Shown: piece by piece, positions 5,603 to 5,773 of the stretch
Numbering within the stretch: position 1 is the first letter of the stretch
Layout of the letters: each line of letters begins with the position of its first letter
DNA from: Escherichia coli
Lineage (GTDB): Bacteria; Pseudomonadota; Gammaproteobacteria; Enterobacterales; Enterobacteriaceae
NCBI RefSeq assembly: GCF_003018115.1
Contig: NZ_CP027457.1
Strand: one strand, 5' to 3'
Length of the DNA: 64,000 bases
Notes under the pieces: model-generated
Databases searched by the model: none
Told to the model about the DNA's origin: nothing
The model's input: the letters and a program-made list of their open reading frames with translations, nothing else
Position numbers and translations under genes: made by a program

Positions 5603-5616
5603 TTGAGCGAAGTCAA
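5603..5616. promoter_or_regulatory. Candidate FNR box (TTGAG-N4-GTCAA) upstream of fnrS
   Basis: Near-consensus TTGAT-N4-ATCAA dyad centred about 42 nt upstream of the FnrS 5' end, the class II activation position. Confidence 0.6.
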
Positions 5617-5651
5617 TAAACTCTCTACCCATTCAGGGCAATATCTCCATT

Positions 5652-5773
5652 GCAGGTGAATGCAACGTCAAGCGATGGGCGTTGCGCTCCATATTGTCTT
5701 ACTTCCTTTTTTGAATTACTGCATAGCACAATTGATTCGTACGACGCCGACTTTGATGAGTCGGCTTTTTTTT
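5652..5773 (+). ncRNA. fnrS: FnrS anaerobically induced small RNA
   Basis: Sequence GCAGGTGAATGCAACGTCAAGCGATGGGCGTTGCGCTCCATATTGTCTTACTTCC...GCCGACTTTGATGAGTCGGCTTTTTTTT matches FnrS as I recall it; terminal hairpin plus T8. Confidence 0.85.

Follow-up and report, generated by a model that had tools for sequence, protein, structure and literature searches.

FnrS is a small RNA (sRNA) of Escherichia coli that was reportedly described in 2010, by Durand and Storz and by Boysen et al., as FNR-activated and Hfq-dependent. According to the literature on K-12, the RNA is made only in the absence of oxygen and is activated directly by FNR (PMC3688515 for the direct activation), with ArcA contributing. 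By base pairing in the regions of mutants I–III, FnrS represses mRNAs of oxidative metabolism and stress, among them sodB, marA, and iscR (PMC8595263). The record of K-12 MG1655 carries the gene as ncRNA fnrS (b4699) at 1409129–1409250, between zntB and ynaL/dbpA.

At canonical class II FNR promoters (e.g. narK, caiF, and bssR), the FNR site overlaps the −35 region and a −35 hexamer is lacking (Myers et al. 2013, PMC3688515). The class II sites in Table 1 of that study are mostly centered at −41.5, which leaves 29.5 bp between the center of the box and the first base of a −10 hexamer starting at −12. The fnrS promoter, which the study classes as directly activated by FNR, has the same overlap and the same spacing. 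In contrast to the canonical promoters, the top-scoring FNR site under the K-12 fnrS ChIP-seq peak is centered at −42.5 from the annotated start, as is the site of ydhY. The center can move while the spacing of 29.5 bp is kept because the start of fnrS lies one base further from the −10 hexamer, 7 nt after it instead of 6 nt. The fnrS half-sites (TTGAG and GTCAA) both differ from the consensus (TTGAT and ATCAA) at the fifth position.

RyhB, which is controlled by Fur, follows the same logic as FnrS: a factor-controlled, Hfq-dependent sRNA represses mRNAs that the factor itself does not bind as a repressor. The two RNAs share targets such as sodB and marA (PMC8595263), whereas their sequences are unrelated and their signals differ (iron for RyhB, oxygen for FnrS). 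The likeness is therefore a functional analogy and not family membership.

The window analyzed here is a stretch of 64,000 nucleotides from E. coli. We assign its positions 5603–5773, with hardly any doubt, to the fnrS locus, consisting of an FNR-dependent class II promoter and the 122-nt Hfq-dependent sRNA FnrS. Nothing that we observed contradicts this assignment. The limits of the span are exact, since it opens with the first base of the FNR box and closes with the terminal U of the terminator. An earlier note had called FnrS recognizable at this place from the sequence alone and had named the failure of a covariance-model scan as grounds for abandoning the call. When the whole window was scanned with the Rfam 15 models at their gathering thresholds, frnS/FnrS (RF01796) was called on the plus strand at 5652–5769, over model positions 1–119 of 119, with 134.8 bits (E = 4.4e-24), more than twice the gathering score of 60. 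In the comparison with the annotated K-12 gene, which the note had also proposed, b4699 maps to 5652–5773 with 122 of 122 bases identical, the FNR box is identical as well, and the gene lies between the same neighbors. The recognition of FnrS is thus borne out both by family membership over the full length of the model and by identity and shared position with an experimentally defined gene.

The same scan called four further sRNAs above their gathering scores, so that five families are found in the window in all. The others are McaS, MicC, RydC, and the sok antitoxin RNA, at 2179–2274 (−), 10580–10700 (+), 53684–53747 (−), and 54307–54458 (−).

The 5′ end at G5652 is the one used in the literature, as judged from the names of published mutants. 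Bases counted from 5652 agree with G4C/G5U, C47A/U48A/U49G, and U57A/U58G/U59A as quoted in PMC8595263. The coordinates of all features are collected in Table 1.

Table 1. Features of the fnrS locus, in window coordinates; promoter positions are relative to G5652 (+1)
Feature	Position	Strand	Basis and remarks
A-tract AAAA, −64 to −61, upstream of the FNR box	5588..5591	+	Conserved; candidate docking site for alpha-CTD (UP-like)
FNR binding site TTGAGCGAAGTCAA (TTGAG-N4-GTCAA)	5603..5616	+	Center −42.5, class II position; overlaps the −35 region
−10 hexamer CAATAT, −13 to −8	5639..5644	+	CAnnnT: C, A, and final T each 99% conserved in 118 promoters
FnrS small RNA, 122 nt, 5′ end G5652	5652..5773	+	RF01796 and identity to b4699
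5′ stem-loop, nt 10–35, 9-bp stem, loop AAGCGAUG	5661..5686	+	MFE and centroid folds, Rfam consensus, alifold (101 homologues)
C/U-rich stretch UUGUCUUACUUCCUUUUUU, nt 43–61, main target-pairing (seed) region	5694..5712	+	Mostly unpaired in Rfam and alifold; conserved
Second, weaker stem-loop, nt 62–87	5713..5738	+	Rfam consensus and single-sequence fold
Rho-independent terminator GCCGACUU-UGAU-GAGUCGGC followed by U8	5746..5773	+	Terminator scan

The RNA assumes the architecture known for FnrS, that is, a 5′ stem-loop, a C/U-rich region, a second hairpin, and a terminator with a U-tail. The second hairpin is the weakest part of this fold, and alifold recovers only its apical 3 bp. For the C/U-rich stretch the three predictions differ in detail: nt 43–46 close the outer 5′ helix in the Rfam consensus and nt 47–61 are unpaired there, nt 48–61 are unpaired in the alifold consensus, and the stretch is partly unpaired in the single-sequence fold. 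The published pairing mutants fnrS-I (U57–59) and fnrS-II (C47–U49) (PMC8595263) both fall within it. The terminator scan returned GCCGACTTTGATGAGTCGGC followed by T8, with 8 pairs, 5 of them G-C, and then TTTTTTTT. Hfq would be expected to bind the RNA at this 3′ U-tail.

Comparison of 101 distinct homologous RNAs supports this picture. The 5′ end, stem-loop 1, and the C/U-rich stretch are nearly invariant, the invariance of stem-loop 1 being partly imposed by the search pattern (see below). In the terminator, two stem pairs show compensatory changes (AU/GC in 46/44 and CG/UA/GC in 74/21/3 of the RNAs). The single-sequence fold shows no significant gain in stability over shuffled sequences (z = −1.67), a frequent outcome for sRNAs that carries little information.

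The sequence of 5600–5660 reads agtTTGAGcgaaGTCAAtaaactctctacccattcagggCAATATctccattGCAGGTGA. Within it, the box TTGAGCGAAGTCAA has TTGAG on the top and TTGAC on the bottom strand, an imperfect dyad that matches the FNR consensus TTGAT-N4-ATCAA at 8 of 10 positions (2 mismatches), with both TTGA/TCAA cores intact. Its center lies between 5609 and 5610, and the box spans −49 to −36, so the dyad is found where the earlier note had placed it, about 42 nt upstream of the 5′ end.

By motif statistics the box is unremarkable. In the 64-kb window, TTGAT-N4-ATCAA with at most 2 mismatches is no rarer than chance (55 observed, 37 expected from shuffles), and neither is the exact core TTGA-N6-TCAA (2 observed, 1.5 expected). 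The only other exact core, TTGAGAACCGTCAA at 59061–59074, was set aside as probably a chance match, lying inside a 551-amino acid ORF (58775–60430, plus strand) for which no NCBIfam hit was found.

Because the motif alone carries so little weight, we turned to phylogenetic footprinting. We searched one genome per species with a degenerate pattern taken from stem-loop 1, which gave 120 loci from genera including Escherichia, Citrobacter, Enterobacter, Serratia, Yersinia, Erwinia, Pantoea, Dickeya, Pectobacterium, Edwardsiella, Hafnia, Photorhabdus, Arsenophonus, and Sodalis. Lined up without gaps on the 5′ end of the RNA, these loci comprise 118 distinct promoter-plus-RNA sequences. Since the pattern lies within stem-loop 1, conservation of that stem is partly built into the set, whereas conservation of the promoter is not.

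In 116 of the 118 Enterobacterales promoters, the best FNR-like box is centered at −42.5. Positions −48/−47 (TG) and −39 to −36 (TCAA) are 99–100% conserved, and 111 promoters retain both TGA/TCA cores intact. The ∼20 bp that separate the box from the −10 element are, in contrast, near random and hold almost no information. The distance from the box center to the start of the −10 hexamer is likewise constant, with 29.5 bp in 116 of 118. Only the promoter of Yersinia artesiana (L041) has its box at −41.5. Its sequence indicates that 1 nt has been lost downstream of the −10 element, before +1, so that the distance from box to −10 element is kept. Together with the site reported at −42.5 in Myers et al., this distribution also upholds the reading of the box as one for anaerobic activation by FNR, as the earlier note had it. 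It is the fixed position, the conservation across species, and the published ChIP-seq that make the box convincing, and not the motif by itself.

A separate inverted repeat, CTACCC-ATTCA-GGGCAA at 5625–5641, lies in the spacer between the box and the −10 element and resembles a terminator on the minus strand. It is kept in promoters of Escherichia, Citrobacter, and Pluralibacter and is absent in more distant genera.

The core promoter is weak and has no −35 element, as is typical of class II FNR promoters. A scan of 5400–6000 with the sigma-70 consensus found no stand-alone promoter. By eye, ATAAAC at −36 to −31 agrees with TTGACA at 2 of 6 positions and provides no usable −35 hexamer. Both observations fit dependence on an activator.

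From the stop codon of zntB to the terminator of fnrS, the window differs from K-12 at two bases only, CA instead of TC at 5648–5649 (−4/−3). On the way to ynaL one further difference is found, a single base in the ynaL leader. RNA, FNR box, −10 hexamer, terminator, and flanking genes (zntB and ynaL/dbpA) are otherwise those of b4699. Across Enterobacterales, T at −4 is conserved to 91%, and the window has C at this position. Because −4/−3 differs from K-12, the start site in this strain is an assumed one.

Three other explanations of the locus deserve consideration. Granting that the RNA is FnrS, the box could still be a chance match or the site of another CRP-family protein such as CRP itself, with FNR acting elsewhere or indirectly. 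Matches of similar quality are indeed common in the window, as the counts given above show, and co-regulation of FnrS by ArcA has been claimed in the literature. Durand and Storz are said to have seen smaller effects of both CRP and ArcA on FnrS levels. FNR and CRP sites are told apart by the base preceding TGA (T and not G) and the base following TCA (A and not C). By these discriminators the box is FNR-type in all 118 promoters, with G at −49 in none and A at −36 in every one. A chance match would also hardly stay fixed at −42.5 while the neighboring columns drift, and in K-12 a ChIP-seq peak of FNR is centered on the promoter with the identical box (PMC3688515). We therefore regard a chance or CRP site as very improbable; footprint and ChIP-seq exclude it for practical purposes. 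The least credible of the three explanations, with a probability close to nil, is that the transcript is also, or instead, the mRNA of a small protein, encoded from ATG at 5660–5803 (47 amino acids) or from TTG at 5650–5868 (72 amino acids). Both frames appear in the mechanical ORF list, and 115 of the 118 distinct homologues share the ATG at +9. However, the frame that it opens differs in length between homologues (3 to more than 42 codons), and in its first 33 nt, 22 of 31 substitutions fall on codon position 2 and not 3, the opposite of a coding pattern. The variable length and these substitutions led us to reject the ORF from ATG 5660 as a small-protein gene. Moreover, the ATG is part of the conserved stem-loop 1, both reading frames continue past the terminator, and RNA structure and pairing regions account for the conservation.

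The third explanation accepts FnrS and its FNR box and concerns the CA allele, which might shift the start or alter the strength of the promoter, so that the 5′ end or the level of the RNA would be unlike K-12. The allele is the only change between the zntB stop and the terminator, and it touches the well conserved T at −4. Because the extreme 5′ end of the RNA (G4, G5) belongs to the published pairing regions, a shifted start could matter. On the other hand, the box, the −10 hexamer, their spacing, and the +1 context (GCAGG) are all intact, and the allele is common: over 291 bp, at least 12 complete genomes are 100% identical and 1928 are at least 99% identical to the window, O26 and O103 strains included. 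Such a spread is not expected of a dead allele, and we consider an altered start or output unlikely.

Upstream of this FNR box, the footprint revealed one more conserved element. The A residues of the A-tract at −64, −63, −62, and −61 are found in 73%, 82%, 94%, and 82% of the 118 promoters, whereas the flanking columns are near random. The position suggests that the tract is possibly a docking site for the alpha-CTD of RNA polymerase, similar to an UP element. More speculatively, it could be an obligatory third element upstream of bound FNR, or, separately, the CA allele could tune start or output in some E. coli lineages; we give this only a modest chance. The A-tract element may be undescribed so far, as far as can be said from a comparison outside which the founding papers of 2010 lay. 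If true, an effect of the A-tract or of −4/−3 would slightly refine the picture of a known promoter and would not amount to a new system.

The genomic position is that of K-12, with the gene order zntB–fnrS–ynaL–dbpA–ttcA. The neighboring ORFs of the window are scored as equivalogs of ZntB, DbpA, and TtcA, and a 57-amino acid ORF at 5831–6004 corresponds to ynaL. Farther downstream, the two strains part. In K-12, the 23-kb Rac prophage starts at the end of ttcA, and in strain E2865 intR is found there. In the window (8471–10580), uspF follows directly after ttcA and is itself followed by a gene for an OmpC-family porin (in the position of OmpN) and MicC, which indicates a ttcA site without prophage in this strain. 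The absence of Rac has no bearing on fnrS.

The locus is present in nearly all E. coli. A megablast search with the 291 bp of 5540–5830 found it in 5392 of 5426 complete genomes, always with at least 95% identity. No match was found by megablast in the remaining 34, a few complete genomes carry two copies, and six matches lie on plasmids. One of the identical loci belongs to strain E2865 (NZ_AP018808.1, 6001–6291), and there the automatic RefSeq annotation lists zntB and ynaL and no fnrS. Of the two records that we compared, only the curated one of K-12 thus holds an fnrS feature. Because RefSeq leaves fnrS unmarked in the identical locus of E2865, its recognition from sequence adds a feature that routine annotation omits.

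The sequences compared here show directly which RNA this is, how its promoter is built, and that box, spacing, and terminator are conserved. Since the strain shares its box, core promoter, and RNA with K-12, we infer that the same circuit, including FNR occupancy, anaerobic induction, Hfq binding, and targets, would operate in this strain. In the absence of oxygen, an FNR dimer with [4Fe-4S] clusters would bind TTGAGCGAAGTCAA (5603–5616) at the vacant −35 position and recruit sigma-70 RNA polymerase to the weak −10 element CAATAT (5639–5644). Transcription would then start at G5652 and stop at the terminator (5746–5773). The resulting FnrS would pair, through its C/U-rich stretch (5694–5712) and its 5′ end, with the ribosome-binding regions of mRNAs whose functions are dispensable under anaerobic conditions, e.g. 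sodB, marA, and iscR, and would lower their translation and stability. Such pairing would extend the reach of FNR to genes that it represses only indirectly.

The feature is the ordinary, well-studied fnrS of E. coli; it is already known and presents no new biology. FnrS is the post-transcriptional arm of the anaerobic FNR regulon, and the intact copy found here indicates that this strain possesses the standard circuit.
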